Source of the DNA: Candidatus Saccharimonadota bacterium
GTDB taxonomy: Bacteria; Patescibacteriota; Saccharimonadia; Saccharimonadales; SZUA-47
DNA: 39,331 nt
NCBI GenBank assembly: GCA_020428015.1
Contig: JAGQNQ010000003.1
Span: 1-39,331 of the forward strand
Direction of reading: 5' to 3'
Below, piece by piece: positions 7,926 through 25,299 of the stretch. A program made the translations under genes and the position numbers. The notes beneath the pieces are model-generated. The model ran no database searches. It was not told the origin of the DNA and worked only from the letters and a program-made list of their open reading frames with translations. The first letter of the stretch is position 1; each line of letters begins with the position of its first letter.

Positions 7926-9834
7926 CAGTTACCCCTTGTGGGATCTGAAGGCCGTTAGTTAACGGGTTCAAAGTCTCTTTACCGTTGGAGTTTGCAGCCC
8001 CTTCAGGTAGCGCCCCGAAGGGCCAAGATTTGTACATATTTAAGTGTAAGTGAGGGCCAAGACTTACTCCGGTGTTGCCGACTTCCCCAATCTGGGTACC
8101 GGCTGATACCGACGCTCCCTCTGAGACACCACTCGAAATGGCACTAAGATGACCGTAGTGGCTCCAGATGCCATTGCCCTGATCAATAACGATTAAGCTG
8201 CCATAAGCAGAATGCCATCCAGCAAAAACAACTGTACCATTTTGCATGGCAATAACCTTCGTTCCAGTAGGTGCGGCTATGTCTATCCCCGAATGGTAGT
8301 AGGACCCGCCACTAACTGTTTTGTGGCGTAAATCAGACCAACAGGAAGTGATTCTTCCGTAGGGAAGCTCATCGACTACTACTGGCCATAGAAGTTGACC
8401 AGAGGCCAAAGCACCGACCCCACAAGTGCTGCTACCAGCAGGGCTATAACCAAAGTAGGCAATGTAAGTCATTGCACCGGGCGGGTTGTCTATGCCAGAA
8501 ACGGTCTCGCCCCAATGTTTCCCACTCGAAGTCACACCGCCTTTATTGCCGCTCGTACCAACAGGTCGTTCCATGCCTACGCCGTCAGGCCCTAAATGAT
8601 TTTCATCATACAAATTCATTACATATGGAGCGATTCCCGGCTCCCAAGGACCCCCCTCCTCCACAGGAACGTTTTTATATAAGTAACCTCGGTGGTATGC
8701 TAAAAATGCATATTGCAAATCCTGAAAGCTCATATTTGCGGAAACTGTAACGTTATATACACCTTTTGCATTACCTTCAAAAATTTTATAAGCAGCTTCT
8801 CCGCTCTCGAGGAGAGTTTGCGGAGTATTATTTGTATCTACAGCTTTTTGGCCCAGGGGTTCTCCCCCAAGCATAGAGCGATTTGGGTCTGCGCCCGCCT
8901 CACGAAAATGAAGTGCTCCAAAAACTTGCCAAGGAATGCCGAATTCAGAAGATAGCTCTTCATATACTGATTTGTTTTGGGTAACTCTTTCCTCAAGGCC
9001 GCTTAATCGTTGTTTAGCAATTTCTGGTAAAGCAGACCCAGACGCTGTAGAAGTAGAAGTTTCACTTAAGTTTCTACCTACAGCACTTTGTATTATCGAG
9101 ATAAGCAGTTTTGTACCTTCAGGTATACTCGGATGTATTTTGTCAGAATCCATTAAAGGTGAAGTAACCCCAGTACTTATTGAATCTGGAGTTGAGTCTG
9201 ACGGGTATACATAAGAGAAAAAGTCCGCGATTGTATAGTTATATCTACTTTCGTCAGCATATTTCATTATTGCAGCATTTGCTTTTCCAGCAGAGTCAGC
9301 GATAGCTTGAGTGGAGTTAGCGCTAGTATTGACCCAAACAACTCTAGTGGTCTTGATGGAATTTAGTTTATCTAAAAATTCAGGAATTTTTTTATCATAA
9401 TTATCGGAGTTGGTCCCGAGAACAACCACTACTGTACCAGCTAGTCTAATTTTGTCGGCATCTGCATCTAGGGCCTCAAGGGCGTTTTGTGATTTCTGAC
9501 CTCCTCCAGATATTGATCGTCCAACAGAACTATTGCTACCAGTGACAGTAATTCCTGAATCTTCGAAAGTTGTTTGAATATTCGGTGAAACTGACTCCAT
9601 ACGAGCTAACCATGAGTCGCCAATAAAGTACACTCCTTCAGTAGAAATAGTAGCATCACTGCTACATGTTTGTGGATCTTGTGGATCTCTATAATCTAGG
9701 CCTTTGTTTATAGAATCAATGTCTCTTTGAGTCAGAGGCAGTAGAGCGCTTACAGAAGGCTGGAAAATATAAATATTGATAACAATAAGCAAGAACAAGG
9801 TAAGAATTTTATTTAATATTTTATTGCTTTTCAT
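7867..9834 (-). CDS. Secreted multi-domain cell-wall hydrolase: SGNH/GDSL esterase domain, unassigned middle domain, C-terminal M23 (LytM-type) peptidase
   Basis: Signal/anchor MKSNKILNKILTLFLLIVINIYIF. SGNH blocks: FIGDSW (block I), VVLGTNSDN (III), DKIHPS (V). M23 motifs: HSGIDIAAP (HxxxD) and GPHLHLN (HxH). Start ATG 9834 has a perfect GGAGG SD and lies 5 nt after the upstream stop; the track's 9870 start is rejected. Confidence 0.8.
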   Translation of the reverse strand: MKSNKILNKILTLFLLIVINIYIFQPSVSALLPLTQRDIDSINKGLDYRDPQDPQTCSSDATISTEGVYFIGDSWLARMESVSPNIQTTFEDSGITVTGSNSSVGRSISGGGQKSQNALEALDADADKIRLAGTVVVVLGTNSDNYDKKIPEFLDKLNSIKTTRVVWVNTSANSTQAIADSAGKANAAIMKYADESRYNYTIADFFSYVYPSDSTPDSISTGVTSPLMDSDKIHPSIPEGTKLLISIIQSAVGRNLSETSTSTASGSALPEIAKQRLSGLEERVTQNKSVYEELSSEFGIPWQVFGALHFREAGADPNRSMLGGEPLGQKAVDTNNTPQTLLESGEAAYKIFEGNAKGVYNVTVSANMSFQDLQYAFLAYHRGYLYKNVPVEEGGPWEPGIAPYVMNLYDENHLGPDGVGMERPVGTSGNKGGVTSSGKHWGETVSGIDNPPGAMTYIAYFGYSPAGSSTCGVGALASGQLLWPVVVDELPYGRITSCWSDLRHKTVSGGSYYHSGIDIAAPTGTKVIAMQNGTVVFAGWHSAYGSLIVIDQGNGIWSHYGHLSAISSGVSEGASVSAGTQIGEVGNTGVSLGPHLHLNMYKSWPFGALPEGAANSNGKETLNPLTNGLQIPQGVTDEAGCSNWPNGGREVNIAL

Positions 9835-9839
9835 AAATC

Positions 9840-12800
9840 TTAACCTCCGGTTGTTGAGAGGTGCCACCACTCACAACCCCCTTCATCTTTTCCGCCTCTT
9901 ATCTCAGTCCCATCTGAGTTAGAGCCTACGCACTGAAGAAGTAAACCAAACTTGTTGGAGTTTGCCGCAACCCATTCAAGACAAGGATATTGACCAACAC
10001 CGCTTAGGAAGCTTTCCCTTCCCCTACCGTTTCCAGCCACGTAACTTTTACCGCCTCCTTGACAACTTATATCAACAGCAGCACCATACTGATGATTTGA
10101 GTATCCAGGTTTCGCATATGTGCCTGCTCCAGCTCCACCTGCGTATCCTCTAATCTGGGACGCCATATCCCTAAATCCATATGTTCCTCTAAATGTATAT
10201 CCAGCTGCCTCCATTGCATTGAATAAATCGTCATAAGCCTTTGCTACTACTGAGTTAATTTCAACGCCGTGAACGCTGCACAGAGTTATGGAGTATTTTG
10301 TGCCCTTTATATATGCTTCTGGCTCAATCCTTAGGAAGCCGATAGTCGGGCTTTGCGGACAAGGAATTTTGTCTGTATTCTTGGGCTCAAGAGGTACCCC
10401 AGCTATTAGATCAGTTGGGACAGTATTAGACCCAGACCCTGTACCAATAGCGCTGGAACTATCAAGGTCAAAAATTTTTGTTAGTGAGTCTACTACTACA
10501 TCGTCTAGCAAACATGGATTTGATTTAGTGTAGATTTTCTCTCCTGTTTTAGAGTCAGTCCTAGCGCTTGATTCACGGTCGTGTTCATACTGCGAACACC
10601 TCTCGGGAGTTAATGTATCTGGGTCAACTGATAGTGCCTGGTCGTCAACGGCAAAACCATATTGTGTTACATCAAAAAGGCTAGAACGGTCAATATCGCT
10701 AAATGCTGAGGTCTTCTTATGGAGCCCAAATAGTGAAGATAATGTATCTATAAAACCAAGGTTAGTTAACCCGATACTGATAGACTCGCCTTGAAATGGT
10801 ATGGATTCACCGATTGCCATAAGGCCAGAGGTAGCTAGAGAATATGTATTATTTAGGCTAAAATATCTTTCAAAAACACTTTCAGTTTTTAGCATTTCAG
10901 CATTGTTTTTTGCAATTTCTACGTCTAGTTGAGTCTGTTGCGCGGAAGATAAAACCGTCCCGCCAAGGCCCACAGTCTCACCAGTTTCTGGGTCTTTATA
11001 ACCCTTAGCAAAAGAATTGGAGATAACATCAAGGGATCCCCCAAATTGGGTAGCCAATTTATAACCTCCAGCAGCAGCATCTAGACTAGAAGTGAAGACG
11101 ACTTTACTTATATTTTCAAACGCCCATATTGCAATTCTTCCTACTTGATCGGTAATATAGTCTATACCGTCGCCTACTATCGGGATATCTTGCAGGAAAG
11201 ACAGTAATGTACTGGCTATTCCAGAGATAGCCCAGTTTATACCTTTTAGCGCGCCATGTACTATGGGTTGAATCTTTGAACCAGGGGTACATCCAACGTA
11301 AGGTATGGGTAGGAAGCATTTATTATAGATATCTAAAGTAAGTTTTAAGGGTGGGAAATAATTTTTTAAAGCTTTCCATCCATCTTCAATAAAGCTACCG
11401 GGGTTTACTGTTAGTTCAGGGCAAACCAGGGGGTCGTCTTCGCCCTGTAATATCTTGCCATCTTCACATTCATTTACGCTTTTCGGCGAAATATTATTAA
11501 TCGACTGCCATAATCGACTTTTGTCATAACCAAAAAATTTTTGGACAACTGCTCCCTTGTCTTCAAGTGCTGACTCTGAGGATATAGCATCGTCACCAGC
11601 AACTAGCCAAGCCTGCCCATAGTCTGCCAGAGCCTGTTCTCGTAGTTGCTTTGCATATCCGCTTATTACACCTTTGTTTATTTTCTTATCTACCTGATCT
11701 ATCATGTCTAGTACCGATGCCGCCAAATAAACCTGACCTACTATGGGGACGCTGGATGCCGCGGCTTTGGACGCTGCTTCAGCGTCATATTCAAAAAATT
11801 TCTCAAGTATAATAGCAGTCATTTTTTTAGCTATATAGTCTGACATGCTTGAAGCTCCCAGATCTTCAATATCTTTCGCAATTTTTTCAACACTTTCTTT
11901 CCCGGCTTTTTCTACAATTTCTTGTGCGGCTTTTGACGCTTCTCGTTCAATCTTATCTGGGCTACAGTCTGTTGCAAAACAAAGTAAGTATACAGCCGAC
12001 TTTGAACTTATCGGGCTAGCCACTCGGTTTATTAACTTGTATTCAAGTTTCTTCAAGGCACTTATCTTTATATCGCTGATTTCGTCTTTTTTAGCACAGG
12101 CGATAATGCACCATTTACTTGCTTTATATTTTGATGCGAGCAGGCTTCGCAAGTGTCTTCTTTTAATAACGCCATCGAATTCAGTGTCTTGTTTCATTAT
12201 TTTAACAACTTCTTTGCCTACGGTATTCCGTCCGTATGTGCCAACTTCTCCCTTAACGCCAAAACTATTTGTTTTAAATACCTTAATCTTGTTTTTGTCC
12301 CTCGTGTCTAGTTCAAACGACAAACCATGATTATTAAAAAGTCGATCTTCTATTTTTCCATTTTTCCAGCTTCTGTAGAGTTTAGTTGTCAAAACAGTGC
12401 CGGCAGGGAAACTATTACAGCTAGCATCCACCTTAACGCCACAGGCCTTAGACGGTATAATAATATTCTGTACATACTTATCAACATATGTTTCGACGCG
12501 GGTCTCCAGTGCATAATTAACTCTGTTCATGAAAGCGTCAGTCATTTTAGTAGTCATTTGTTTTATTATTAGTGTAGGCAAAAAAGCAACTGCACCAAAT
12601 ACACTGACAACCAGCACAAGTATCCCAAGGGTAATGGCGGTCTTTTTCTTGTTTGATTTTCCCTTTCCAGAAATATATCTAGGGTTATTGTTCTCGCCAT
12701 CTGTTTCTTCATCAGTATCGTTCAGTGCGTCTTCCTCGCTACTAGATGCGGTTTCATTGCCGTCTTTTGTTGATGCTCTAGCTTCTCTTTCCGGGACTTC

Positions 12801-13101: not shown

Positions 13102-15012
13102 TTATTGTTGCAACTGTACGGTATCATTATACCCTGTTTGTTCTAAATTTACTGCTTGCGCAGGTCCTCGATTTTGCGCTCGATTCGGATCAGTTGTTAT
13201 GAGTTCAGTTTCGGTTGGACTAGCAGCAATTTGAATATGCACATGGTTTTGTCCTGCAAAGAATAAGCCTTGTCCTACCGGGAACTGACTCAGGCGTTTC
13301 TTTTCTTCACTTGTGAGCTTGAAGACGTCACTTAGTACATCAACCGCTGACGGCGACTGCTTCAGCAGGATTTGCATACTGGCGTTAGCCACAATTGCCC
13401 TACCCATGCGTGATCCCATGAAGTCCTCGACATCCTGGGTGATAGTCGTGATACCTAGGTTATATTTACGTGCACGTTTAGCCAGACTGAATAAGAAGTT
13501 GGCAGAGTCTTCGTATTTCATTAGCTGCCACGCCTCATCCACGATTAATATGCGTTTTTTTTGGTCTGTCTTGGTCTTGTTCCAAATGTAGTTTAAAACG
13601 ATATACATGGCAACTGGTCGTAGCTCGTCCTCCAGATCTCGAACGTTAAATACTACCAGTGGGTTGTTTATGTCGATATTGCTCGGTTGACTAAAGATGC
13701 CCGCAAATGTTCCCGTTGTATATTTTCGCAGACGCTGAGCAAGTTGTGGCCCGGTACCACCCATGTGGAGGAGTGTGTCGTAAAGATGTGCTATGGTTGG
13801 TGCTGGTGATTTATGAGTCAAGGGGTCGTTCGTAATACCGGCTTTCGCATAGGTTTCAATCAGTGCCGCATCAAGATCTGATTCTTCGACTGGTGTAAGT
13901 GTTGGCATAATCGGTCCGTTACCACCCTGGTTTGCCATGGCAGCTTGGGCGCCCCCCATCATCAGCCTGAGTAGACCATGAAGGGTTATAAGGTTGCTGC
14001 GCAAAGCGTTATCACTTTCTTCTGGATCGGTCACATTCGGTAGATCAAAGGGGTTTATTCGTGTATTACTGTTGAGCGACAAGCGGACGTATGCTCCGCC
14101 AACCGCATCACACATGCGTTGGTATTCGTTTTCAGGATCGATTATGAATACTTCGGTACCAAACATCATGCTGCGTAGTGCTTCTAATTTCACCGTGAAA
14201 CTTTTACCCGCTCCAGATTTTGCAAATACCACTGAGTTGCCATTTTCTAAACTGAATCTGTCAAAGATTACTAACCCAGAGTTGTGCATGTTAATTCCAT
14301 ACATAATCCCCGTATCCTGAGTCAGGTCGGCACTTGTGAACGGAAATGCGGTACTAATTGCGCCTGTGTTCATATTGCGTCGAATCTGTAATTGATCTGT
14401 GAACTGAGGAATTGTTGAGTTAAGTCCTTGTTCTTGTTGGGCACTCGCAGGCTTACTATAGACAAGTTGCTGCGCAAGCACACTTTCAACCTTATGCGAA
14501 ACAAATTCCAGCTCTTCCATAGAACCTCCGTATATCGTGAAATAGAAGCCAAAGCGGAAAAATCGTTCTTCGCCAACTTGCAGCTTATCACGGAGTTCTT
14601 CAGCGTCCTGGATAGCAACTTGCTTTCCTGGGTCACGCACACGACCTTTTTCAGCATCAATCTGTAGTCCAGCCTCAAGTTGACCTACTTTCTTTTTCAG
14701 GTTTTCTAGTACAACTTGACTTTCAACTGGGTAGACAAATAGTGAAATATCAATAATTTCGTCTAGGTTCACCATGCTAGACAGCCAGCCAGTATAAATC
14801 TGTCGGGGATAGCCGTAGACATAGTAAGTACGACCAATGCGTGTACCGATTTTGAACACACTACTTTCAAACTCAAGGCTGGCGGGTGCAATAAAGTCAC
14901 GAAGTGCTGTTATTCCCTTCTGGAAGGCAGCCTGAACCTCAAGCTGTTCTCGAACCGCTTGGGCTTGGGCCTGGGCTATTGGATCTAACTTTTCTTTTCT
15001 GCCGAATGCCAT
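13102..15012 (-). CDS. virB4: VirB4/TrsE-type T4SS ATPase
   Basis: 636-aa ORF with Walker A VFAKSGAGKSFTVK and Walker B KRILIVDEAWQL. The Gram-positive VirB4-like N-terminal region reads RTYYVYGYPRQIYTGWLSSM...IDISLFVYP. Confidence 0.88.
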   Translation of the reverse strand: MAFGRKEKLDPIAQAQAQAVREQLEVQAAFQKGITALRDFIAPASLEFESSVFKIGTRIGRTYYVYGYPRQIYTGWLSSMVNLDEIIDISLFVYPVESQVVLENLKKKVGQLEAGLQIDAEKGRVRDPGKQVAIQDAEELRDKLQVGEERFFRFGFYFTIYGGSMEELEFVSHKVESVLAQQLVYSKPASAQQEQGLNSTIPQFTDQLQIRRNMNTGAISTAFPFTSADLTQDTGIMYGINMHNSGLVIFDRFSLENGNSVVFAKSGAGKSFTVKLEALRSMMFGTEVFIIDPENEYQRMCDAVGGAYVRLSLNSNTRINPFDLPNVTDPEESDNALRSNLITLHGLLRLMMGGAQAAMANQGGNGPIMPTLTPVEESDLDAALIETYAKAGITNDPLTHKSPAPTIAHLYDTLLHMGGTGPQLAQRLRKYTTGTFAGIFSQPSNIDINNPLVVFNVRDLEDELRPVAMYIVLNYIWNKTKTDQKKRILIVDEAWQLMKYEDSANFLFSLAKRARKYNLGITTITQDVEDFMGSRMGRAIVANASMQILLKQSPSAVDVLSDVFKLTSEEKKRLSQFPVGQGLFFAGQNHVHIQIAASPTETELITTDPNRAQNRGPAQAVNLEQTGYNDTVQLQQ

Positions 15013-15032
15013 CTAGTTATCTCCCCAATACA

Positions 15033-15857
15033 TCATGCCGGTAGATCCTTATCTAGGTTTGGATTAGCTGCTTCGCCCAGCCCTTTTGTCACTACTGGTG
15101 CGTCAAGCCCTGAAAAATTCTTCATCTTTTGGCGTGTCGCGGTGTCTGGGTTATAAGCATCGTAGTACAGCTCTATCAATTCCTGGGTATCCAGGGGTAG
15201 TGATTGGACCTGGCACTGCTGCAAACCGGCCATGACTGCTTGAATACGATTTTTAAGCTCAGTTTTTGCTTGTTCTAGATCGTTTTCATTGATAACTACA
15301 CGCTGTTCCTTATTGCCGAGGATAGTTGAAAAGAAACCCTTGCTCGCTTTTACTACTTTTTGTGTGTCAACAACTGGCTCGAAAGGAATCACAACGTAAA
15401 ACTTCTTGTCCATGATATTCGTCTGCTGCGCTACGGCATCCATGTAGTTTATGTAGTCTTCCATAAGGAGCGCAAGCAGCATATTATCGTGCTCGGAGCG
15501 AATTTTGTCTAGTTTATCGATATAAGGTCTTAAGTCTACTTTCTGGGAGCGAACAAAAATCTGAATTGGAAAATACAGAGAGTTCAGGAACCCTTGATAT
15601 GCGTATTCAACAGCTTCACGTTCCTGACCGCTCATTAAATCAAAGTTTATACTTTGGCACATCATGACCGCACGAAACGTACCATCATTTAATATGACAA
15701 TACCATCACGAATTTCAGCAATTTCTAGTGCGTTTTGGGTACTTATTTTATTTACGGGCAAACCTGGAGTTGCGACGGGAGGACCTGCCTGCCCCGGCAT
15801 TTGCGGGATGGCCGTCTGAGGATTTGCTGCCTGTTGGTTCGGGTTCAATGGATCCAC
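15033..15857 (-). CDS. Unknown T4SS-associated protein; resembles a free-standing VirB4/TrbE N-terminal domain (weak)
   Basis: 274-aa ORF with a Pro/Gln-rich N-terminus, then IAEIRDGIVILNDGTFRAVMMCQSINFDLMSGQEREAV..PIQIFVRSQKVDL. This pattern is typical of the N-terminal part of VirB4/TrbE proteins. The gene sits directly upstream of virB4. Confidence 0.45.
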   Translation of the reverse strand: MDPLNPNQQAANPQTAIPQMPGQAGPPVATPGLPVNKISTQNALEIAEIRDGIVILNDGTFRAVMMCQSINFDLMSGQEREAVEYAYQGFLNSLYFPIQIFVRSQKVDLRPYIDKLDKIRSEHDNMLLALLMEDYINYMDAVAQQTNIMDKKFYVVIPFEPVVDTQKVVKASKGFFSTILGNKEQRVVINENDLEQAKTELKNRIQAVMAGLQQCQVQSLPLDTQELIELYYDAYNPDTATRQKMKNFSGLDAPVVTKGLGEAANPNLDKDLPA

Positions 15858-15867
15858 CTGTCCTTAC

Positions 15868-17076
15868 TTAATGTAATGATATAACGACTTCGCCTTCATC
15901 AGGCATATCTTTTTTAGCCTGACGAGCGAGCGTCTCAACGTTTAAATCGTCGTTACCGGATAGTGCCAGTATAGCAGGATCTACAGGGGTTGTGCTAGTG
16001 CCTGCAGGGTCACTTATAGCTTTATCGCTGGCAGGGTCATCTTGTGCTTGTGAGCTGCTTTGTCCGTCGTCCTGGACAGCTGAGAGTGGCTGAATTGTTT
16101 TTAGATGAGTGTGTTGTTTCATCGAGGCTTCCTGCGCCTGCTTAGAGTGGACTTTTTCAAGTAACTTTGCTTCATCTTCTGCTTTGATTGTGGGTTGCGA
16201 GACGCCCATACCCATAGTCGAGGTCTCTTTTGTACCCGGCGCAACAACACTGTTGCTTTGAAACGAAGCTAGGTTTGGATCACGAGGCTTCTCTGGTTCG
16301 TTGAGAAACCATAGGTCTTGTGGGTTAACCCCTTTTTCTTTTTTGGGATGCTTCTTCTTTGCTTCTTGTGTTTCTGCAACAGCGGGCAGCGGGATATCTT
16401 CATCGGTTTTATGTACAGATGTTGCCTGGCGTGCTTGCTCAATCATGTTAAGCGTGTCTTGTTTGTGTTTTTGCTCAGACTGCTGAATGAGCGTACTGAA
16501 CTGATCTGTGATTGCATTATGTTCGTCCATGACATCAACAGTGCTCGCTAATATTTGGTCATTTTCATCTGGTGTACGTTCTGTTGCCGCAACTAGCCGG
16601 TCGGATTGCTCTTCATCTGTATATGCGGCTATGTTTTTTACTGCCCAGCCACGGGTGTCGACGACACTCGCCAAAGCATTCACGCGGCTATATACCTGAT
16701 CGTGGCTCAGTCCGTCGCTATAGACTTTCTCTTCTCTTTTTGGAACGGTGACTTCGACAAGGTCTTTGATGCCCGTCTGATCCCATATTCGTCTGCGCGG
16801 GACCAGGAAAAAACGAATACGTGCCGCGAGCCATATTTCAGTCGGCTGGTCTTTACTCCATGGAAAGGCCAGGATAGCAAAAAAAGCAAAGACAGGTAGT
16901 AAAAGCGCCACGCCAATCCAAATACTTTTGGTCGCAAATATAAATAGGATGTAGCCTGAAATAGCCGCTCCACCAGCAAACAAGAACTGCTTGAACGTCA
17001 GAGGCCCAAGAAACTTGTCCTCAGCCTCAACATCTTGTGGTACTTTATACCCCGCCATACCGGTTAAGTATAACAT
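15868..17076 (-). CDS. PrgI-family (VirB3-like) membrane protein with a long acidic/Gln-rich C-terminal extension
   Basis: The N-terminus (M)AGYKVPQDVEAEDKFLGPLTFKQFLF is followed by two TM helices (AAISGYILFIFATKSIWIGVALLLPVFAFFAILAF), as in PrgI/VirB3-like proteins of Gram-positive conjugation systems. ATG 17058 is an alternative start. Confidence 0.55.
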   Translation of the reverse strand: MLYLTGMAGYKVPQDVEAEDKFLGPLTFKQFLFAGGAAISGYILFIFATKSIWIGVALLLPVFAFFAILAFPWSKDQPTEIWLAARIRFFLVPRRRIWDQTGIKDLVEVTVPKREEKVYSDGLSHDQVYSRVNALASVVDTRGWAVKNIAAYTDEEQSDRLVAATERTPDENDQILASTVDVMDEHNAITDQFSTLIQQSEQKHKQDTLNMIEQARQATSVHKTDEDIPLPAVAETQEAKKKHPKKEKGVNPQDLWFLNEPEKPRDPNLASFQSNSVVAPGTKETSTMGMGVSQPTIKAEDEAKLLEKVHSKQAQEASMKQHTHLKTIQPLSAVQDDGQSSSQAQDDPASDKAISDPAGTSTTPVDPAILALSGNDDLNVETLARQAKKDMPDEGEVVISLH

Positions 17077-17098
17077 TTATCTTGGACGCGGGCTTGTG

Positions 17099-18112
17099 CT
17101 ATTTGAGCCAGTATAGACGAGGGCCACGGATTTTAGGAATCTTTTTTAAGTGGCCATGACGTGCTTCGTCAATGACATGTTCGTGCTCGTGAGCCTTATG
17201 TAGTGCGTGATCGTATCGCTCCTTTGACTTAAGTATTGCGACTTTTTCAGCCTCAGAGATTGCCATAGTCGACAGTACTCTTTTTAGATCAGCAGTGTCC
17301 AGGTCAAGAATATCTCCATAGAGTCGATGCTCTTTCACGGCTTCTCGATGGAGCTCTGTTACTCGGTTTGCGTGTTTTGCTATGCCCAGTTCAAATCGCC
17401 GTTCGGCATTAGTTCCTGGAGTAAACTGTTCGGGGTGTTGAAGAGGGCCACCCTTTCTGTACGGTCCAGTATAGCCGACTTGATTAGCCGGGAAACTATT
17501 TGCCTTAGCCAAATCTTGACCTCTTAAAGAACCCGGGTTTCTGGTTTCTCGATGGAATGCTCCACCCCACCTGTCTAGTGAGCTATAAGGACGAACTGGC
17601 TCGACTGCACCGGTTTGGCGATTAGTCTGCGTTCTATCTTCAGGGTGTAGTCGTAAATGTGCCCTTTCAGCTATCTCCATTCGGCGTATATCTGCCAAGC
17701 TCTTCGCTCCTTTTCCTGTTTTGGCGGGGCCACGGCGACGAGCTATCTTGTGAGCAATTGCTTCCGCACCTTTCTTTACGCCATACGCTGCTCCGATTGC
17801 ACCGAGTGCAAGTATAGGCAATGATACTATATTGTTCCCTGAGGTTATTTCTGGCAGATTAATTCCGACCAAAGCCTCGGTGTTTTCTGGGGAGTGACTT
17901 TGAGCCTTAGTTGAATTTCCCATTTCTTCTGCTTTGAAAAAGGCATGCTCCACCGGTTCTGTAGTGTGATTTGCTGCAACTCCCGTGAGATCGATATTAA
18001 ATATATGTCCGTCGGGTCCAACAACTTGGACCGGGCTGCTGTTTATCTGTCCGACCTCTGTTGCTATAATCTTTGTATCTTGGTTAGGATTGAAATTTGG
18101 AGCATTTTCCAT
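17099..18112 (-). CDS. Unknown bitopic membrane protein with a basic, His-rich C-terminal half
   Basis: 337-aa ORF with a single central TM helix (IVSLPILALGAIGAAYGV). TATAAT (18125-18120) lies 7 nt before the ATG with no SD. Confidence 0.6.
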   Translation of the reverse strand: MENAPNFNPNQDTKIIATEVGQINSSPVQVVGPDGHIFNIDLTGVAANHTTEPVEHAFFKAEEMGNSTKAQSHSPENTEALVGINLPEITSGNNIVSLPILALGAIGAAYGVKKGAEAIAHKIARRRGPAKTGKGAKSLADIRRMEIAERAHLRLHPEDRTQTNRQTGAVEPVRPYSSLDRWGGAFHRETRNPGSLRGQDLAKANSFPANQVGYTGPYRKGGPLQHPEQFTPGTNAERRFELGIAKHANRVTELHREAVKEHRLYGDILDLDTADLKRVLSTMAISEAEKVAILKSKERYDHALHKAHEHEHVIDEARHGHLKKIPKIRGPRLYWLK

Positions 18113-18167
18113 GAGTTAGATTATAGCAAAAAATACCAAAATTGTCAATATGCTTATGCTGTATTTA

Positions 18168-18437
18168 TTATTTGACTTTAGTACAGTATCTTTGAGGGTC
18201 TTCTTCTAACTCATGAGGTAGAGAACGCCAAGCTTCAAGGGTGTACATTTTAAGTCCGAGGACGCCATAGTCTACTTTATAGAAGCCAAAGTTATCGGTT
18301 GACAATGCTTCGGGGTGTGATTCGGTTAGGTCTTGCGCCATAACACCAACGTACTTTTGCTTACTCCAAATATATTCAAAGCTGTAGAGTTTGATGCCTG
18401 CACCCGTAGTTGTAAGGTACGAGATATTTTTTTTCAA
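18168..18437 (-). CDS. Peptidase S74-type intramolecular chaperone domain (phage tail-fibre/endosialidase C-terminal domain), in frame with the upstream ORF across a TGA
   Basis: (R)LKKNISYL..IKLYSFEYIW..YVGVMAQDLTESHPEAL....FYKVDYGVLGL matches the S74 pattern SDxRxKxNI ... F.y ... G(F/V)(I/M)AQ(D/E) ... (V)(D/N)Y. There is no ATG before residue 31 and no SD before TTG 18437. See the finding on the in-frame TGA. Confidence 0.6.
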   Translation of the reverse strand: MKKNISYLTTTGAGIKLYSFEYIWSKQKYVGVMAQDLTESHPEALSTDNFGFYKVDYGVLGLKMYTLEAWRSLPHELEEDPQRYCTKVK

Positions 18438-18440
18438 GCG

Positions 18441-21230
18441 TCAGTCTGACGTAGTGCCGGTGCCCGCGCCAGGTGGTCCAGGAGGTTGAATCCCCTGCTG
18501 TGCTGCCTGCTGAGCTCGCGCTCCTTGCAGGGCGTCAACACCATACTCTTTGCGACGATCCAAAAATTCTTTTGATTCGTTTGATTGAGGAAGTTGCTGG
18601 ATGAGCTCTCTGATTGTTGTTGGTGGTGGGTTTGTCACGGTTCGTTTTACTACGTTGCCGTTCACATCAATTTGAGGCTGACCATTTTGTCCATATACCA
18701 TTTGTTCAGTGGTTAATGTCACACCCGAAATTTGTTGACCCATAAGCTCATTGGCAAAAGCAGCTGCGTTTTGGGGTGCGGCCTGTCCCATCGCGTCGTA
18801 TAGCCCGGCAGCAGCTGCAGTTGCTGCAGAGACATCATCAATGTTCGCAGCACGCCCCAGCGATTCAATTACTGTTCCATTGTTCATGCTGTCGATAAGT
18901 CCCTGGATCCTTCTTGCGTGGGCCTGGCCAATAGCAGCTGCACTGTTCGGCTTACCGTACATGGCCTCTTGAGGGGTTGCAGAGTCAAGTACATCGTCAT
19001 ATATGATTTGCGAAGCCTCTGCCTCAAGTCCTTCTCGCCGATCCCGCGCGATAATATTATTTCGATCGCCGTGACTTCCTGCTTGATATAATCTACCCAT
19101 TTGTGCCGCCATTGTGGCATAACCAGCTTTTCCGAGTGCAACTTGCCCAGCCTGCACAGAAGCACTTCGCATTCGAGCCAGTGCAGCACCTGCTCCAGCG
19201 CGGTCGTCGCCATATGCCTCGTTGATATCATTTAGCATTGCGGCAACATCAACACCGGTATGTCGCTCTCCATTCTCGTCAACGTAATCGTACTGGTATG
19301 CAGTTCCAGTTGCTGCTTGAGCCTCAACCCTCGCCTTATTAAAAGCCTCAAATCCAACCTTTTTCTGTGCTCTTACAATCGATGCAACCGCACTATCCAG
19401 GGCAGCAGGATCTGTAGTGAAGCGATCCCCTCCCTGTCGGATTAGCTCTGCTCGAATATCGGACTCGTCTTTAAATCGCGCAGCCCAAAGCATGTCGTCG
19501 TCTCCTTTAATGACCGCAAAGTCGTGATCTTTTTGGGCGAATTCCTGTGCCTCATGTCCTGAATGAGCATTCATTCCTTGTGCTATGTTTCGGCGCCATT
19601 TGCGTGGGTTGGCACTAAAAGCGTTTGGATCCTTTGCTTGATAGGCAAATTCCCCAGCTCTGTTAAGTCGTGCTCGTATTCCAGTTTCGCCCGCACGCTT
19701 ATACCTATTACCTGAAGCAGCATCATGAGCAAGTTGTTTTCGCTTTTCAGATCGATATTTCCTTGAACGGTCGAATAATCCCTTGCTTCGGTCATTGACC
19801 ATGCCGGCAATGCTTGAGAAAGCGTTACCCGCGTACTGAAATGCCTTAGGAATGAAAAAGAAGGGGCCTATGTAGGCAGTAAGTTTTATCAATATAATAA
19901 ACACTCCACCGTCACCGGCAGCACCTGCAGTGTTGTTTATTAACACGGCAAATCCCCTACCAGTCATAAGTAACCCAACAATTATTGGATAGAGAAGTAA
20001 TAATTTTGAAAAAGTTCCCCACCATAACTTCCATAGCTTATCGTTACCTGGGAAAATCCAAGATAGAATTGCCACAGGTGCCATTATCACTAAGAAAATT
20101 ATCAAAAGTTCTCTGACGGTTAATATAAAGAAAATAATTAACAAAGCTAAAGCTGCAGTGCCTAGGTAACTGGCAAGTATTCCTATAGAAACTGCTCCGA
20201 TACCGAAAAGTGCTACAGCAGCTAGTGGTCCAAAAGTAGCGATAGCAACATCATTACCAATGCTTGCATTAAAAACATTCTGCAACGTTAGTTTGTCTGC
20301 TCCACCAAAAGGCTGAGCTATAAGCCCGCCTACGCCCCTACCGATAGCATTTGTCATTTCAATCATTATCCTTGCGACGTCAAATGATAGTGCAATAAAG
20401 ATAATAGCAATAATCAAGCGGGGCATTGCCCTCTTAACTGTATAGGCGTCTAGAAATTTAAATCCGAGAGCTGTCCCAATAACCATTACTAGCATAATAG
20501 GTATTAATAGAACGTAGGCTATGTTCCGTATCCTGGCCCATGCTAGTTCCACTGATCCTGTTTGCCCACTTGCCTGATTTTGAAGATATTCAGGGTTGAC
20601 CTCTAGGGCCTGCCGCACCCTTCCGTCTAAGTAATCAACTACTTCATTTGCACCCCTTAGAAGAGGGCATAAAATAAAACTAAACTCACCTCCCTCATCT
20701 TCACAGCTGGCAGAGGCACCACTGGCGGTTTGTGGTAGGCCAGCCGAGCCCACAGATGATGTGTTGGGGTTGGTTGCAACAAAGTTACAGCTGATTCCAT
20801 CCCATGTCCCATTTGCATCTCTACAAGCATTTGAATCCGTTATATTAACAACCGTTCCTTCGACGTTGGGGTTAAGTTCTACTATATTGCAGTCAACACC
20901 TACAATCTGATTTCCTTTTCCGGCATCAACTACGGAACCCCAAAGACCGAGTACATCAGCCGTATCAGGGTTGTCCATAATAATATCTTCACCACAAACA
21001 AAGTTCGGGGGCAGGTATATTAGCCAATTTTTGGTAGCGACATCTCTTTTATCGACACCTGCCAAGGTATACGTTACCCCCCTGAAGCTAACTTGCTGGC
21101 CTGAAATATACGCTGACTCAGCACTCGCCAAGAGAGTCATAGACATAAACGAAACTAAAAACACAAACAAAATTATCGGAAATCTGAACGATTTCATTTT
21201 TGATAAAAACATATGCACTAATTTTAACAC
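18441..21230 (-). CDS. VirB6/TrbL-like polytopic T4SS channel protein with an N-terminal secreted Cys-containing head domain and a ~450-aa hydrophilic C-terminal tail
   Basis: 929-aa ORF: signal peptide (..FMSMTLLASAESA), a ~150-aa ectodomain, at least 6 TM helices (e.g. IAYVLLIPIMLVMVIGTALGF, LALLIIFFILTVRELLIIFLVIMAPVAILSWIF), then a long Ala/Gly/Gln-rich tail ending ..GAGTGTTSD-TGA. The VirB6 call rests on topology and operon context. The start is ambiguous (GTG 21230, ATG 21212 or ATG 21197). Confidence 0.65.
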   Translation of the reverse strand: MLKLVHMFLSKMKSFRFPIILFVFLVSFMSMTLLASAESAYISGQQVSFRGVTYTLAGVDKRDVATKNWLIYLPPNFVCGEDIIMDNPDTADVLGLWGSVVDAGKGNQIVGVDCNIVELNPNVEGTVVNITDSNACRDANGTWDGISCNFVATNPNTSSVGSAGLPQTASGASASCEDEGGEFSFILCPLLRGANEVVDYLDGRVRQALEVNPEYLQNQASGQTGSVELAWARIRNIAYVLLIPIMLVMVIGTALGFKFLDAYTVKRAMPRLIIAIIFIALSFDVARIMIEMTNAIGRGVGGLIAQPFGGADKLTLQNVFNASIGNDVAIATFGPLAAVALFGIGAVSIGILASYLGTAALALLIIFFILTVRELLIIFLVIMAPVAILSWIFPGNDKLWKLWWGTFSKLLLLYPIIVGLLMTGRGFAVLINNTAGAAGDGGVFIILIKLTAYIGPFFFIPKAFQYAGNAFSSIAGMVNDRSKGLFDRSRKYRSEKRKQLAHDAASGNRYKRAGETGIRARLNRAGEFAYQAKDPNAFSANPRKWRRNIAQGMNAHSGHEAQEFAQKDHDFAVIKGDDDMLWAARFKDESDIRAELIRQGGDRFTTDPAALDSAVASIVRAQKKVGFEAFNKARVEAQAATGTAYQYDYVDENGERHTGVDVAAMLNDINEAYGDDRAGAGAALARMRSASVQAGQVALGKAGYATMAAQMGRLYQAGSHGDRNNIIARDRREGLEAEASQIIYDDVLDSATPQEAMYGKPNSAAAIGQAHARRIQGLIDSMNNGTVIESLGRAANIDDVSAATAAAAGLYDAMGQAAPQNAAAFANELMGQQISGVTLTTEQMVYGQNGQPQIDVNGNVVKRTVTNPPPTTIRELIQQLPQSNESKEFLDRRKEYGVDALQGARAQQAAQQGIQPPGPPGAGTGTTSD

Positions 21231-21315: not shown

Positions 21316-21921
21316 ATGGATAATCAAGAACAAAAAAATAACGACTATGCATTTTTAGTCGACCCTTTGCAACATGTTACCCCTCCTGCCAATAATAGGT
21401 TCAACAAGAAATACCTAATCATAATTTTAGCTATGGTTGTAGCAGTAATGCTTACTGTGTTGGCGATTATTGCTTCGGTAGTTAGTAATACAAACAATGC
21501 GGTTAATGAAGACATCCAAGTTCAGAAAATCACATCATCAGATGCAGCGCCTGCAATTGAAAAAATGCAAAATTTAATATCTGCATTCTCTAATCAAGAC
21601 TATAAAACAGCGGTTAATCTGATTAGTCCAGAGTCGCAGATTTATTTATCAGGTGTTAATCAGCCAACATTAAATGCATATACAGGAGAAGGAGTTCAGT
21701 GGAGTTCATGCAAGCAAATTCAAAAGGATAGCTACGATACCACAGAAGACATATCTAATTCTCAAACATTTCAGGTGATTTATATAGACTACTCATGCCC
21801 ATATAAAGGAGAAGACAACAATAAAAGGGTTACATTTGATGTTCGGAAAAACCTATCGATAAATAATAGTGACTGGAAGTTATACTATATAGTTGTAGTA
21901 GAAGGTGCAAATGAGCAGTAA
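21316..21921 (+). CDS. Unknown membrane-anchored protein (first gene of the plus operon)
   Basis: 201-aa ORF with one TM helix (YLIIILAMVVAVMLTVLAIIASVV) and then a small globular ectodomain. It overlaps the next gene by 11 nt. Confidence 0.6.
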   Translation: MDNQEQKNNDYAFLVDPLQHVTPPANNRFNKKYLIIILAMVVAVMLTVLAIIASVVSNTNNAVNEDIQVQKITSSDAAPAIEKMQNLISAFSNQDYKTAVNLISPESQIYLSGVNQPTLNAYTGEGVQWSSCKQIQKDSYDTTEDISNSQTFQVIYIDYSCPYKGEDNNKRVTFDVRKNLSINNSDWKLYYIVVVEGANEQ

Positions 21922-23182
21922 AAGAAAAATGACATTAAACAAACTGATTAACGGGTTAACGGTATTACTCTTGTTTTTGGGCACATTTATATTTTCAACT
22001 TCTCTTGTATCGGCTGAAGATGCTCTGGTTTCAGGTAATCAGATAAAATATCAAGGAGTTACTTACACGTATAAGGGTATCGACAATAGGCCAAGTAGCA
22101 GGATTTACGGATGGAAAATTTATCTGCCAGTTGGATTTAGTTGCGGTGACAATATTATTGTAGACAATCCTGAAACATCCGGAACGGTAGCATATAGAGG
22201 TACAACAGCTTCATCTGGAGAGGCAAGTCCAATAATTGGGGACTGTAAAACAGTTGTAGAAAATGTACAGCCAGCAATTGTAAATATTGACACTGAGAGT
22301 CTATGCAGTACCAATAATGGTATATGGACTGGGACAGAATGTAACTTTAACGGCGTTGGTCTGAATTTGCCTCTACCGTCCGGCAGATGCTACTCTTCAA
22401 ACGGCTCAAACTATAACGTAATAAATTGCCCTACGGGAAGTAGCCCAGGTCAAAACTGCATAGTTACTCACCCGCCTGCATCTGGACCTGTACAGATTAG
22501 CTGTAACACTGGACTGCCATTAGCTACAAGCCAAGGCGGCACAATTAATTGTAGTAATACAGTTACCATTGATTGCGTACAAGATGATGGCTTATACCGC
22601 TGCTGGGACGGTTCAGCAATTGCAATGGCAAGGGGATCCACCTGCCCAGTAAACGCCGATCTAGTTCATAGAACTATTTGCGAAAATACAGGAGGAGACT
22701 GGAGGCTTGGAATAAATGACACCTACAGTTGCTTCTGCCCTAATAATTTGGCCTTCGATCAGACCAATGGGTGCCCTGATCCATTAGTGAATAATACAGA
22801 TCGCCAACAAGCGTGTGAAGGATCAGGAGGTGTATGGCAGGCACAATCGGGCGGAACTACTGGGTGTTCGTGTCCGTCTTCTGGTCAATTGAATGCTGAT
22901 GGATCATGTCCTAAATACGATTGTTCTGACCCAGAATTAAATGCAAAAAATTGCCAGATTGTAAATTATTTAGTCGGAGGCATAAACTTCTTGTCGGCAG
23001 TTGCAGGACTCGCTATAGTAGCATCAATAATGATTGCAGGGTATCAATATATGACGGCCCGTGATAATTCGGGGCAGATTGAGGCAGCAAAGAAGCGAAT
23101 TATATGGGCACTTGTCGCTCTTGGCCTATTCCTATTTATGTACGCTCTCTTGAATTTCCTTGTTCCTGGAGGTGTCATATAA
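21911..23182 (+). CDS. Giant pilin: signal peptide + Cys-rich ectodomain + C-terminal TrbC/VirB2-type T4SS-pilin domain
   Basis: ATG 21911 follows AGAAGG. I count 22 Cys in the ectodomain. The C-terminus, IVNYLVGGINFLSAVAGLAIVASIMIAGYQYMTARDNSGQIEAAKKRIIWALVALGLFLFMYALLNFLV, has the same helix-loop-helix pilin module as the five downstream genes. Confidence 0.7.
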   Translation: MSSKRKMTLNKLINGLTVLLLFLGTFIFSTSLVSAEDALVSGNQIKYQGVTYTYKGIDNRPSSRIYGWKIYLPVGFSCGDNIIVDNPETSGTVAYRGTTASSGEASPIIGDCKTVVENVQPAIVNIDTESLCSTNNGIWTGTECNFNGVGLNLPLPSGRCYSSNGSNYNVINCPTGSSPGQNCIVTHPPASGPVQISCNTGLPLATSQGGTINCSNTVTIDCVQDDGLYRCWDGSAIAMARGSTCPVNADLVHRTICENTGGDWRLGINDTYSCFCPNNLAFDQTNGCPDPLVNNTDRQQACEGSGGVWQAQSGGTTGCSCPSSGQLNADGSCPKYDCSDPELNAKNCQIVNYLVGGINFLSAVAGLAIVASIMIAGYQYMTARDNSGQIEAAKKRIIWALVALGLFLFMYALLNFLVPGGVI

Positions 23183-23608
23183 ATGAAAACATTAAAAAGT
23201 TTCGTTGCAGTGTCTTACATGTTGCTTTTAACTCTCGTTGCCGTTCCCTTTTTCACCATTCCAGCATCTGCCGCAGCTTGTAATGACTTTGATAAAACAG
23301 TACTTGGAATCCCAACATGGTACAAATACCTGCAGGGTGAGGATGTAAGCGGAAAATGTCGTCCGATAATCAACGCTTCTAAGGATGCCCTGCCGATAGG
23401 CCTCGCAGTGCTTGAGGCCGCTATGACACTCGGAGGCCTCGTTGCAGTTGTCATGATCTTTGTAGGATCGTTCAAGTTTGTAATTGCTCAAGGTGAGTCA
23501 AAAAAAATTACTGAAGCTAAAAATACCGTTATTAACTCAGTCGTCGGACTCGTTATCGTTATCATATCGACCAGGATCGTTTCATTTATTGCAGGGAGAA
23601 TAGGATAG
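23183..23608 (+). CDS. TrbC/VirB2-type T4SS pilin paralog 2
   Basis: Signal peptide ending ASAAAC, a Cys pair, then ..LGGLVAVVMIFVGSFKFVIAQGESKKITEAKNTVINSVVGLVIVIISTRIVSFI. The ATG directly follows the previous stop. Confidence 0.7.
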   Translation: MKTLKSFVAVSYMLLLTLVAVPFFTIPASAAACNDFDKTVLGIPTWYKYLQGEDVSGKCRPIINASKDALPIGLAVLEAAMTLGGLVAVVMIFVGSFKFVIAQGESKKITEAKNTVINSVVGLVIVIISTRIVSFIAGRIG

Positions 23609-23612
23609 TAAG

Positions 23613-23903
23613 ATGCAGGTTTTACATCTAATCGCACAAATAAGTATTAACAAAGGGGATCTAAACATCCCTCAATCGGATCCTTCGAGCAGTACCGTTT
23701 CTTCTGCTCTGACCTTGGCATTTGGCATCATGGGAGCCATATCGTTCTTACTAATAGTTGTATCTGGACTGAGGTTCTCTTTGAGCCGAGGAAATAGTGA
23801 ATCTGTAGCAAAAGCCCGCAACAGCATTATTTATTCGGCTGTTGGATTAGTTATCTCAATGTTAGCCTTCGCTATTGTGCGGTTTGTCGTGAGGAGTGTC
23901 TGA
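23613..23903 (+). CDS. TrbC/VirB2-type T4SS pilin paralog 3 (short, no signal peptide or Cys pair)
   Basis: ..FGIMGAISFLLIVVSGLRFSLSRGNSESVAKARNSIIYSAVGLVISMLAFAIVRFVV. Its stop overlaps the next start (ATGA). Confidence 0.6.
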   Translation: MQVLHLIAQISINKGDLNIPQSDPSSSTVSSALTLAFGIMGAISFLLIVVSGLRFSLSRGNSESVAKARNSIIYSAVGLVISMLAFAIVRFVVRSV

Positions 23904-24319
23904 TGATAGGCACGAAATCCGAAGCACGAAATCCGAAATGGCTGCAGATAATCTTTGGGATCCTAATTAGTTTCTGGGTTATTTTGGCGCCACTCACTGC
24001 TATGGCGCAGTTTGATCCACTTGCTGCGGCCTGTCAGGAAAATCCCAACGCAACGGCTTGTACAGAGAGTAAAAATGCTCAAAATCAGAACGAGAATCCA
24101 GTTACTGATACCGTCAACAAGGTAGCAAATCTGATCGCAATTGCTACAGCCGTCATATCTATCATCGTCATAATAATTGCAGGCATTTCTATGATATTTT
24201 CTGCTGGTGAGTCGTCCTCAATAAAATCTGCAAGAGACGCAATTATATATGCGGCAGTAGGTATAGTTGTCGTTGCTCTGGCAAGAACAATAGTGATTTT
24301 TATAGTAAATAGGATTTAA
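23903..24319 (+). CDS. TrbC/VirB2-type T4SS pilin paralog 4
   Basis: Signal anchor, a Cys pair (AAACQENPNATAC), then ..AVISIIVIIIAGISMIFSAGESSSIKSARDAIIYAAVGIVVVALARTIVIFIV. Confidence 0.7.
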   Translation: MIGTKSEARNPKWLQIIFGILISFWVILAPLTAMAQFDPLAAACQENPNATACTESKNAQNQNENPVTDTVNKVANLIAIATAVISIIVIIIAGISMIFSAGESSSIKSARDAIIYAAVGIVVVALARTIVIFIVNRI

Positions 24320-24330
24320 CGGGGGTAGTA

Positions 24331-24738
24331 ATGATTCGAAAAAAGATACTAACAAGTGCGGTGGGTGTCCTACTGCTTTTTGCTCCTTTTACGGCAGCGA
24401 TTACAGCTAACGCAGCAGTGGACTCCGCAAGTGACGCAAAGGCAGCGGTATGTGATGGTTTAGGGGCGGCTTCTGGAGGTAACGGTTGTGAAGATCCAGA
24501 TGGAAGTTCCTCTTTAAGTGGTACCGTCGCAGCCGCAATTAACCTTATTTCGCTGGTCGTTGCTGTTATAGCGGTATTTATGGTGATTGTCGGCGGGTTG
24601 AAGTATGTCACAAGCCAAGGAGAGTCATCGAGCACCGCGAGCGCCAAGAATACCATAATCTATGCGATAGTTGGTCTTTTGATTGCCGGGTTGGCTCAAG
24701 TGATCGTTCGTTTTGTCGTGAACAGAACTACCTCCTAG
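24331..24738 (+). CDS. TrbC/VirB2-type T4SS pilin paralog 5
   Basis: Signal peptide (..ITANAA), a Cys pair (VCDGLGAASGGNGC), then ..LVVAVIAVFMVIVGGLKYVTSQGESSSTASAKNTIIYAIVGLLIAGLAQVIVRFVV. Confidence 0.75.
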   Translation: MIRKKILTSAVGVLLLFAPFTAAITANAAVDSASDAKAAVCDGLGAASGGNGCEDPDGSSSLSGTVAAAINLISLVVAVIAVFMVIVGGLKYVTSQGESSSTASAKNTIIYAIVGLLIAGLAQVIVRFVVNRTTS

Positions 24739-24870
24739 ACACCAACGACCAATACTAGTGCTCCGGCTCGGTGGGGTACAGTAAATCCAAATATTCGTTA
24801 GACTTGAGAATCATGACGCGCTTATGATATAAAGTAAAGTAACGTAATCAAAAGAAGGAAAGACGAAAGA

Positions 24871-25299
24871 ATGAACAGAATTAAGAGAATTTTACTAACG
24901 ACAGCAGCAGCTTTAGGACTAGTTATGCCCCTCGCAGCTCCGGCAATGGTGAGTGCGGCCGACACAAACGTTTCTGGAAACCTAAATTGTGGTGCGGCTC
25001 TCGACTTTGATGGAAGTGACTGTGATAATTCAACTGCTGGTACGGACGTAGACAATCTAGTTACGAGCGTAATCAACATCATTTCACTTGTTGTTGGTGT
25101 CGTCGCCGTCATCATGATCATCATTGGTGGTCTTCGCTACATCACCTCAGGCGGTGAATCAGGCAGTGTCACTGGTGCAAAGAATACGATTCTCTATGCG
25201 GTTGTTGGACTCATTGTCGTGGCATTATCACAGGTTATCGTACGTTTTGTCGTGGATCGAGCGACACTAAACGGCGGTTCATCAACAGCTGGTGATTAA
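24871..25299 (+). CDS. TrbC/VirB2-type T4SS pilin paralog 6 (closest to paralog 5; may have its own promoter)
   Basis: Signal peptide (..AMVSAA), a Cys pair (NCGAALDFDGSDC), then ..LVVGVVAVIMIIIGGLRYITSGGESGSVTGAKNTILYAVVGLIVVALSQVIVRFVV. It follows a 132-nt spacer containing TTGAGA-17-ATATAA and SD AAGGAAAG. Confidence 0.75.
   Translation: MNRIKRILLTTAAALGLVMPLAAPAMVSAADTNVSGNLNCGAALDFDGSDCDNSTAGTDVDNLVTSVINIISLVVGVVAVIMIIIGGLRYITSGGESGSVTGAKNTILYAVVGLIVVALSQVIVRFVVDRATLNGGSSTAGD

Follow-up and report, generated by a model that had tools for sequence, protein, structure and literature searches.

Among phage proteins such as the K1F endosialidase, the GA-1 neck appendage (3GUD) and the T5 L-shaped tail fibre, the peptidase S74 domain stands at the C-terminus, behind a passenger that is a beta-helical spike or fibre. 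The hallmarks of this intramolecular chaperone auto-processing (ICA) domain are a Ser/Lys dyad whose members lie five residues apart and a GVIAQ motif for trimerisation (PMC3742440), and, in the literature on MYRF and the endosialidases, the Ser of the S-D motif is both the nucleophile and the cleavage-site residue of family members (PMC3742440). This text concerns an S74 domain in a different setting, namely behind a VirB6-like membrane protein of a type IV secretion system (T4SS), encoded on the minus strand of a 39,331-nucleotide stretch of Candidatus Saccharimonadota DNA (GenBank assembly GCA_020428015.1, contig JAGQNQ010000003.1, positions 1 to 39,331; hereafter the window), where an in-frame TGA separates the codons of the catalytic Ser and Lys.

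In common with the phage proteins, the S74 domain of this family is C-terminal and shows S-D-x-R-x-K followed by G-V-M/I-A-Q, and the predicted fold of the window's domain matches phage ICA domains. In contrast, what precedes S74 here is a polytopic T4SS membrane protein, whose all-alpha tail leads into a disordered Pro/Gly linker; unlike in the phage proteins, the Ser and Lys of the window lie on opposite sides of a stop. Another parallel is MYRF, in which an S74/ICA domain with the dyad five residues apart and GVIAQ resides within a cellular membrane protein and carries out trimerisation and self-cleavage on the cytoplasmic side (PMC3742440). In MYRF, however, the ICA domain sits between the passenger and a transmembrane helix and cleavage frees a functional trimer from the membrane, whereas in the window's family S74 is found at the extreme C-terminus, where cleavage would free only the chaperone.

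With the VirB6/TrbL proteins, the window's protein shares a database assignment to TrbL_3, a polytopic core, an operon with VirB4, TrsD, PrgI and pilin genes, and a C-terminus extended at length; TcpH of pCW3 and the VirB6-like proteins of Rickettsia are examples of 'extended' VirB6 proteins whose C-terminal domains are large. A trimerising module is unexpected in view of the VirB6 of R388, which forms a pentamer in the solved stalk. A survey of Patescibacteria T4SSs describes VirB6 homologues as widespread and VirB6 as essential in Ca. Southlakia epibionticum, and does not mention an S74 or chaperone domain (10.1101/2025.01.22.634366). Full-text literature searches combining S74 or 'intramolecular chaperone' with T4SS, VirB6 or Patescibacteria likewise gave nothing relevant. 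Hence, the original prediction that the pairing of S74 with a T4SS is an unfamiliar architecture stands as far as the searchable literature goes. The architecture nevertheless recurs in Patescibacteria, and some fused members already have automatic database labels, either 'tail fiber domain-containing protein' or else 'Peptidase S74 domain-containing protein'.

The S74 domain and the stop codon within its motif

The 929-amino-acid (aa) open reading frame (ORF; 18441..21230, minus strand) starts with GTG and has ...GAGTGTTSD as its last residues, the C-terminal end of the product (...GIQPPGPPGAGTGTTSD) coming directly before the TGA at 18443-18441. Past this codon, the same frame reads CGC TTG AAA AAA AAT..., translated as RLKKNISYLTTTGAGIKLYSFEYIWSKQKYVGVMAQDL... 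(RLKKNISYLTTTGAGIKLYSFEYIWSKQKYVGVMAQDLTESHPEALSTDNFGFYKVDYGVLGLKMYTLEAW...), and stays open until the TAA at 18170-18168; conceptual read-through of the junction thus gives S-D-[stop]-R-L-K. The features of the junction, given 5' to 3' in the sense of the gene, are as follows.

18444..21230, minus strand: coding sequence of the TrbL_3/VirB6-like T4SS membrane protein, 929 aa (from the ORF, the PF19590 record, hydropathy, an AlphaFold2 model of orthologue P0012 and weak Foldseek matches)
18439..18451, minus strand: perfect 13-nucleotide (nt) palindrome CGTCAG-A-CTGACG holding the TGA (direct reading of the sequence)
18444..18449, minus strand: TCA GAC, Ser-Asp, residues 1-2 of the S74 motif (Ser at 18449-18447)
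18441..18443, minus strand: in-frame TGA at the variable position x of S-D-x-R-x-K, with C as the next base (TGA-C context)
18171..18440, minus strand: remaining S74 domain, 90 codons, including R-L-K, GVMAQ and the C-terminal helix
18437-18435, minus strand: possible TTG restart, 3 nt past the TGA
18434-18432, minus strand: codon of the catalytic Lys in the R-L-K of S74
18347-18333, minus strand: GVMAQ trimerisation motif of the S74 domain
18168..18170, minus strand: TAA, where the fused gene originally ended (sequence and ORF list)
18120..18148, minus strand: sigma-70-type promoter TTGACA-17-TATAAT with TG, 12/12 consensus, between the TAA of S74 and the 337-aa gene that starts at 18112

The position of this promoter, which serves the next gene, shows that the upstream gene naturally has the S74 segment at its 3' end. 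Direct reading of the sequence confirmed two points of the original prediction, i.e., that the S74 frame continues beyond an ORF ending in ...TTSD-TGA, and that the stop lies between the Ser and the Lys of the dyad, two codons past the cleavage site. The accompanying description of the downstream ORF (listed as 89 aa, 18168..18437, minus strand, with a TTG start) was right in part: inspection found no Shine-Dalgarno-like sequence before the TTG, but the first ATG is codon 33, the M of GVMAQ, and not residue 31.

The assignment of the segment to peptidase S74 held up both by profile and by predicted fold. Against Pfam PF13884 (Peptidase_S74; gathering cut-off 22 bits), the conceptual read-through reaches 26.1 bits (E = 1.1e-5), aligned from profile position 1, in comparison to 27.9 and 28.4 bits for intact orthologues and a sub-threshold 18.7 bits for the 89-aa ORF alone. 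AlphaFold2 folds the 90 post-stop codons with a mean predicted local distance difference test score (pLDDT) of 88, and a Foldseek search of this model against BFVD returned phage proteins annotated as 'intramolecular chaperone auto-processing domain', endosialidase-chaperone and neck-appendage proteins, the best match having E = 5e-6, a template-modelling (TM) score of 0.69 and a root-mean-square deviation of 1.2 A. The same small model searched against the PDB gave kinase lobes only, which is uninformative, and a PDB sequence search gave nothing significant with either the full-length family profile or the single read-through sequence; a profile of the S74 subfamily aligned the GA-1 neck-appendage chaperone 3GUD from residue 1 with a marginal E = 0.076. 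The YVGVMAQDL within the window's segment corresponds to the G-V-(I/M)-A-Q trimerisation motif.

The downstream S74 domain is intact, without sign of decay. On a hidden Markov model (HMM) built from 95 subfamily members, it scores 118.6 bits, the subfamily median being 118.9, and it retains 25/25 of the positions that are conserved in at least 85% of members. The codons for Ser and Lys are both kept in the window but are split by the TGA; the dyad is on one polypeptide in all ~95 homologues. It is mainly because the downstream domain shows no decay that the competing explanations of the stop discussed below keep some weight.

Homologous junctions and the repeated loss of S74

Homologous junctions were gathered from a protein search with the read-through sequence, from genome loci, and from a metagenome scan with domain alignment that brought in 80 more loci, the upstream frame being read at every match. 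None of the ~95 distinct junctions has a stop at x; in each of them, S-D-x-R-L-K has a sense codon there. This codon most often stands for Arg (CGA, CGC, CGG, CGT, AGA), and Ile, Ala, Lys, Gln, Val, Met, His, Tyr and Leu also occur, with CGA present in L027, L028, L032 and L034. Fused orthologues have SDK, SDR, SDI or SDA before RLK, including P0001 (PSDKRLKRNISYLTTT), which is 66% identical and has a sense codon at the stop position, and P0002, with SDARLK. The closest relatives have CGA, CGC, AAG or ATT at x, as in these lines from the codon alignment.

Window: TCA GAC TGA CGC TTG
L028: TCC GAC CGA CGG CTT
L026: TCC GAC CGC AGA CTC
P0001: TCA GAC AAG CGG CTC

A single transition separates the TGA of the window from CGA. 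Nearly all of the related loci come from metagenome-assembled genomes of Candidatus Saccharibacteria / Patescibacteria. The orthologue alignment had been set beforehand as the refutation test for UGA read-through or recoding as a designed feature, one of three options in the original prediction, and that option failed the test, the codons at x being sense codons throughout; the evidence favours the third option, under which the stop stems from a recent nonsense mutation or from an error. Specifically, the stop is probably a lineage-specific Arg-to-stop nonsense substitution, real and recent, that has been caught early, and it looks like ordinary gene decay rather than recoding. A one-off nonsense change is preferred because the stop is absent from all of the other junctions, the genetic code is standard, a read-through signal is lacking and S74 has been lost repeatedly, and also because of the other decaying junctions, the palindrome and the lack of a Shine-Dalgarno sequence for the downstream ORF.

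The proposed course of events is the following. The ancestor would have been a fused TrbL_3/VirB6-like-S74 gene. By analogy, in its intact relatives the S74 domain would join three chains, aid the assembly of the preceding segment and then cut itself off before its own Ser. The variable third codon of the domain would then have become TGA by a single base change, most likely from Arg CGA (C to T) or AGA. Translation would then end two residues past the natural cleavage point, giving a 929-aa product that would essentially equal the mature, processed form and would resemble the ~90% of family members that have no S74 and the same Pro/Gly linker end. The remaining 89 codons would be a very young relic, not yet decayed and expressed at most in trace amounts.

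The distribution of the fusion bears on this scenario. A C-terminal, in-frame S74 domain is present in 11/120 of the best homologues of the 929-aa protein, and its carriers are scattered on a neighbour-joining tree of the conserved core, where the window's neighbours are P0012, with S74, and P0011, which lacks it and is followed by the next gene after 72 nt. Intact fusions include L013 (1090 aa, SDRRLK), L095, which is P0012 (1122 aa, ~51-52% identical to the window protein), L028 (1276 aa) and another in L004, and further in-frame S74 fusions are found in L039, L034, L032/L033, L050, L051/L052, L030 and L031. Many fusion loci have the same downstream PrgI-like, TrsD and VirB4 genes as the window, and T4SS operons that are syntenic and carry an intact fusion occur in L013, L095, L028, L031, L032, L034, L039 and L050. 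Most of the homologues without S74 have an F..RRREY-type motif, a Gln/Ala-rich stretch and a Pro/Gly-rich tail, as in the window, and they end at about the point where the S74-bearing proteins have P-S-D. Across these loci, the VirB6-like-S74 fusion is a real and recurrent component of Patescibacteria T4SS operons, from which truncations at the cleavage site seem to have removed S74 more than once.

Several other junctions are broken. In L015 (6001-6213), the VirB6-like ORF stops and is followed by a frameshifted and mutated S74 remnant. In L049 (~4950-5250), Ser has become Pro, a TAG stands two codons ahead of that position and 1 nt is deleted near the Lys; the S74 body is still well conserved relative to that of L109. 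In L056 (~1835-1850), which encodes a different passenger protein, 1 nt is deleted from a C4 run just before the Ser codon, and L046, which is 99% identical to L056, has an intact junction. As read from these sequences, S74 disruptions cluster at the junction. Truncation at the cleavage site would leave a clean, mature-like passenger, whereas selection would act against a break in mid-domain, since the stub left on the protein could not be cleaved off; the truncations that persist would thus be those at the junction. The position of the window's stop is therefore probably no coincidence, as selection for clean truncation would explain a stop inside the motif without invoking design. The case is like ordinary nonsense pseudogenisation in that a single-base stop is confined to one lineage and relatives have decayed further (L015, L049), but unlike it in that the truncation coincides with a natural site of proteolytic maturation and the product mimics the mature protein.

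The S74 subfamily also appears in other settings. Nine freshwater metagenome contigs (L073, L076, L082, L091, L092, L100, L102, L103 and L105) each have two or three tandem genes whose products, ~170-290 aa and Cys-rich, end in the same S74 subfamily (SDIRLKRDIVLLGQTEQGIKLYSFKYLWSDQVYVGVMAQDL); their context is not that of a T4SS. A 150-aa ORF in L053 (348-800, plus strand) consists of a 13-residue leader, a complete S74 domain and two truncated SDxRLKRDI repeats, and comes close to a free-standing S74 protein.

Termination, read-through and sequence error

Evidence on the code and on tRNAs covers the 39-kb window, within which TGA is a working stop. The stops of its 31 ORFs are TAA (14), TAG (13) and TGA (4); in one of the TGA-terminated genes, the Shine-Dalgarno sequence and start of the next gene follow 20 nt later. 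UGA is read as Gly in some other lineages of Patescibacteria (Gracilibacteria, Absconditabacteria), and the frame is preserved across the stop, as programmed recoding or an alternative code, with UGA standing for Trp, Gly or selenocysteine and the fusion as the normal product, would have it. That explanation is effectively refuted. TGA closes three other ORFs of the window, and ORFs of up to 1078 aa have no in-frame TGA, on which grounds an alternative code was rejected; the relatives are Saccharibacteria with sense codons at the site; an Rfam scan found tRNAs only, without an element resembling a selenocysteine insertion sequence; and the tRNAs in the window are those for Ser and Arg, with no suppressor among them.

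It is also possible, if unlikely, that the gene is functionally split, with S74 still being used by way of read-through at UGA-C (near-cognate Trp) or a restart at the TTG, the chaperone acting in cis or in trans in sub-stoichiometric amounts and termination standing in for autoproteolysis for most chains. The downstream ORF is fully intact, with an HMM score at the family median, and yet a recent mutation would leave exactly such an ORF. TGA-C is the leakiest of bacterial stop contexts, and the junction has it while the other three TGA stops of the window are all TGA-T; against this, no stimulatory RNA structure was detected around the stop (folding versus shuffled sequences, z = +0.39). The TTG lies only 3 nt past the stop, but it has no Shine-Dalgarno sequence and the reinitiated product would be without the Ser nucleophile. 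The well-conserved S74 body that L049 keeps behind a wrecked catalytic motif and the nearly free-standing S74 ORF of L053 also count in favour of a split; no evidence for S74 acting in trans was retrieved, and the stop is unique among the junctions compared. More specifically, the stop might functionally replace autoproteolysis, most ribosomes ending at UGA-C with release of the 'mature' protein, and a few S74-bearing chains or free chaperone domains, from rare read-through or a TTG restart, nucleating trimers of the cytoplasmic tails, which we consider very unlikely. If true, a trimerisation chaperone that derives from phages and removes itself would serve the essential T4SS platform of epibiotic Patescibacteria, with three-fold VirB6 tails.

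Third, the TGA could stem from a mistake in sequencing or assembly, or from a minority variant that entered the consensus, in which case the organism itself would have an intact fusion with Arg at this codon; this is decidedly unlikely. A single base from CGA or AGA would suffice, the downstream domain is perfect, and the window is a metagenome contig without a second copy on record, exact-protein look-ups with the 929-, 923- and 918-aa versions having found no other contig. Moreover, the near-identical L046 and L056 differ by one base at an S74 junction, and so polymorphisms or errors of this sort do occur, but the change in L056 is a homopolymer indel and not a substitution. Substitution errors are rare in an assembled consensus. 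Also counting against an error are the real decayed junctions of L015 and L049, the genuine mutational route that the palindrome context offers, and the rest of the window, in which no other broken gene was seen.

That route has to do with the 13-nt palindrome. With an ancestral CGA in place, the palindrome would have a single mismatch, located exactly at the mutated base. Arms of perfect inverted repeats of at least 6 bp with a spacer of at most 1 nt make up 0.7% of the bases of the window, and 4.2% by looser criteria. The 'correction' of quasi-palindromes by template switching is a known mutational mechanism, and the stop may have arisen in this way, which is offered as a lead only.

A number of points weigh against a simple nonsense mutation. 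The absence of decay in the S74 domain is what a very recent mutation would give, but continued selection or a sequence error would account for it just as well. The TGA-C context, together with a TTG 3 nt downstream, may leave room for some expression of S74. Deletion of S74 from phage tailspikes causes misfolding, and, by analogy, a protein that evolved with its chaperone might be impaired by the stop. Finally, the nearest relatives found are 66% identical for the S74 part and 51% for the whole protein, so that the age of the mutation and its frequency in the population are not measurable.

The VirB6-like protein, its operon and the meaning of the fusion

The host protein had been taken to be VirB6-like, and the name is acceptable in light of the PF19590 record, the T4SS operon context and weak fold matches to R388 TrwI/VirB6. 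PF19590 (TrbL_3) is recorded in the protein database for the window protein (P0010) and nearly all of the 120 best homologues, for P0011 without the weak mark; local Pfam and NCBIfam scans gave no TrbL match and did not reproduce the assignment. In a Foldseek search of the P0012 model against the PDB, the top matches were R388 TrwI/VirB6 chains, at weak values (E = 0.6-2, probability <=0.72, target TM score <=0.48). The layout of the window protein is as follows.

Residues 12-40: signal/transmembrane segment
Residues 41-229: ecto-domain
Residues ~230-463: polytopic core, with ~7 hydrophobic segments by hydropathy
Residues 464-929: all-alpha tail, Lys/Arg-rich at its start and ending in a Gln/Ala-rich part and then a Pro/Gly-rich linker

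Because the juxtamembrane start of the tail is strongly Lys/Arg-rich (hydropathy and the positive-inside rule), the tail, and S74 with it, is probably cytoplasmic; an extracellular tail was rejected on the same grounds. The original prediction had the ~450-aa tail folding as a trimeric fibre, and this did not survive structural modelling. An AlphaFold2 monomer of the intact, 51%-identical orthologue P0012, made from an 80-sequence alignment (mean pLDDT 80), has an N-terminal beta-rich ecto-domain and a helical membrane core, then a compact, all-alpha tail at ~600-1025 (pLDDT mostly >90) that closes with a 33-residue helix, a disordered Pro/Gly linker at 1030-1041 (pLDDT <50), and a compact S74 domain at 1042-1122 (pLDDT ~90). 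In view of the confident all-alpha domain, a beta-helical trimeric fibre was rejected; S74 may still nucleate a trimer of, for example, the last long helix.

The genes around the 929-aa ORF form a monoderm-type T4SS operon, with the downstream block, 13102..18112, in the same direction and syntenic with L106 and the S74-bearing loci.

17099-18112, minus strand: Lys/Arg-rich 337-aa protein, downstream T4SS gene
15868-17076, minus strand: 402-aa protein in the PrgI/VirB3-like gene position (synteny)
15033-15857, minus strand: TrsD-like protein (NCBIfam)
13102-15012, minus strand: VirB4-like ATPase, CD1110 family (NCBIfam)
7867-9870: M23 peptidoglycan hydrolase in the same T4SS region (NCBIfam)
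21905..23182, plus strand: pilin-like 425-aa protein, divergent (NCBIfam Mbov_0395 pilin-like)

VirB4 is split (13102-15857, minus strand), with the TrsD-like ORF matching the N-terminal part of VirB4 models and a separate 636-aa ATPase; such a split is reported to be typical of Patescibacteria, and no pseudogene is involved. The 425-aa pilin-like protein and the VirB6-like protein have paralogous N-terminal parts (42% identity over 132 aa, E = 4e-31), consisting of a signal and a Cys-containing ecto-domain (21905-23182, plus strand, and 20541-21230, minus strand), which suggests that two different components of the T4SS share one surface module. Beside the pilin-like gene are four small ORFs (141, 138, 135 and 142 aa; 23183-25299, plus strand), and in the equivalent place L106 has six consecutive PF18895 T4SS_pilin genes; the ORFs at 23183-25299 are probably an array of pilin paralogues.

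The stop itself is most likely routine decay, with no recoding event to pursue, and it illustrates cleanly how nature can dispense with a domain that removes itself while the mature protein stays the same. The point of interest is the architecture, in which, in a minority of lineages scattered over the family, a self-cleaving trimerisation chaperone of the phage tailspike type is fused to the C-terminus of the VirB6-like protein that forms the channel or platform. The T4SS of Patescibacteria is reported to be essential for epibiotic growth (10.1101/2025.01.22.634366). If the S74 domain acts there as it does elsewhere, the VirB6 tail would be trimeric, which would constrain models of the unsolved T4SS of monoderms and the candidate phyla radiation.

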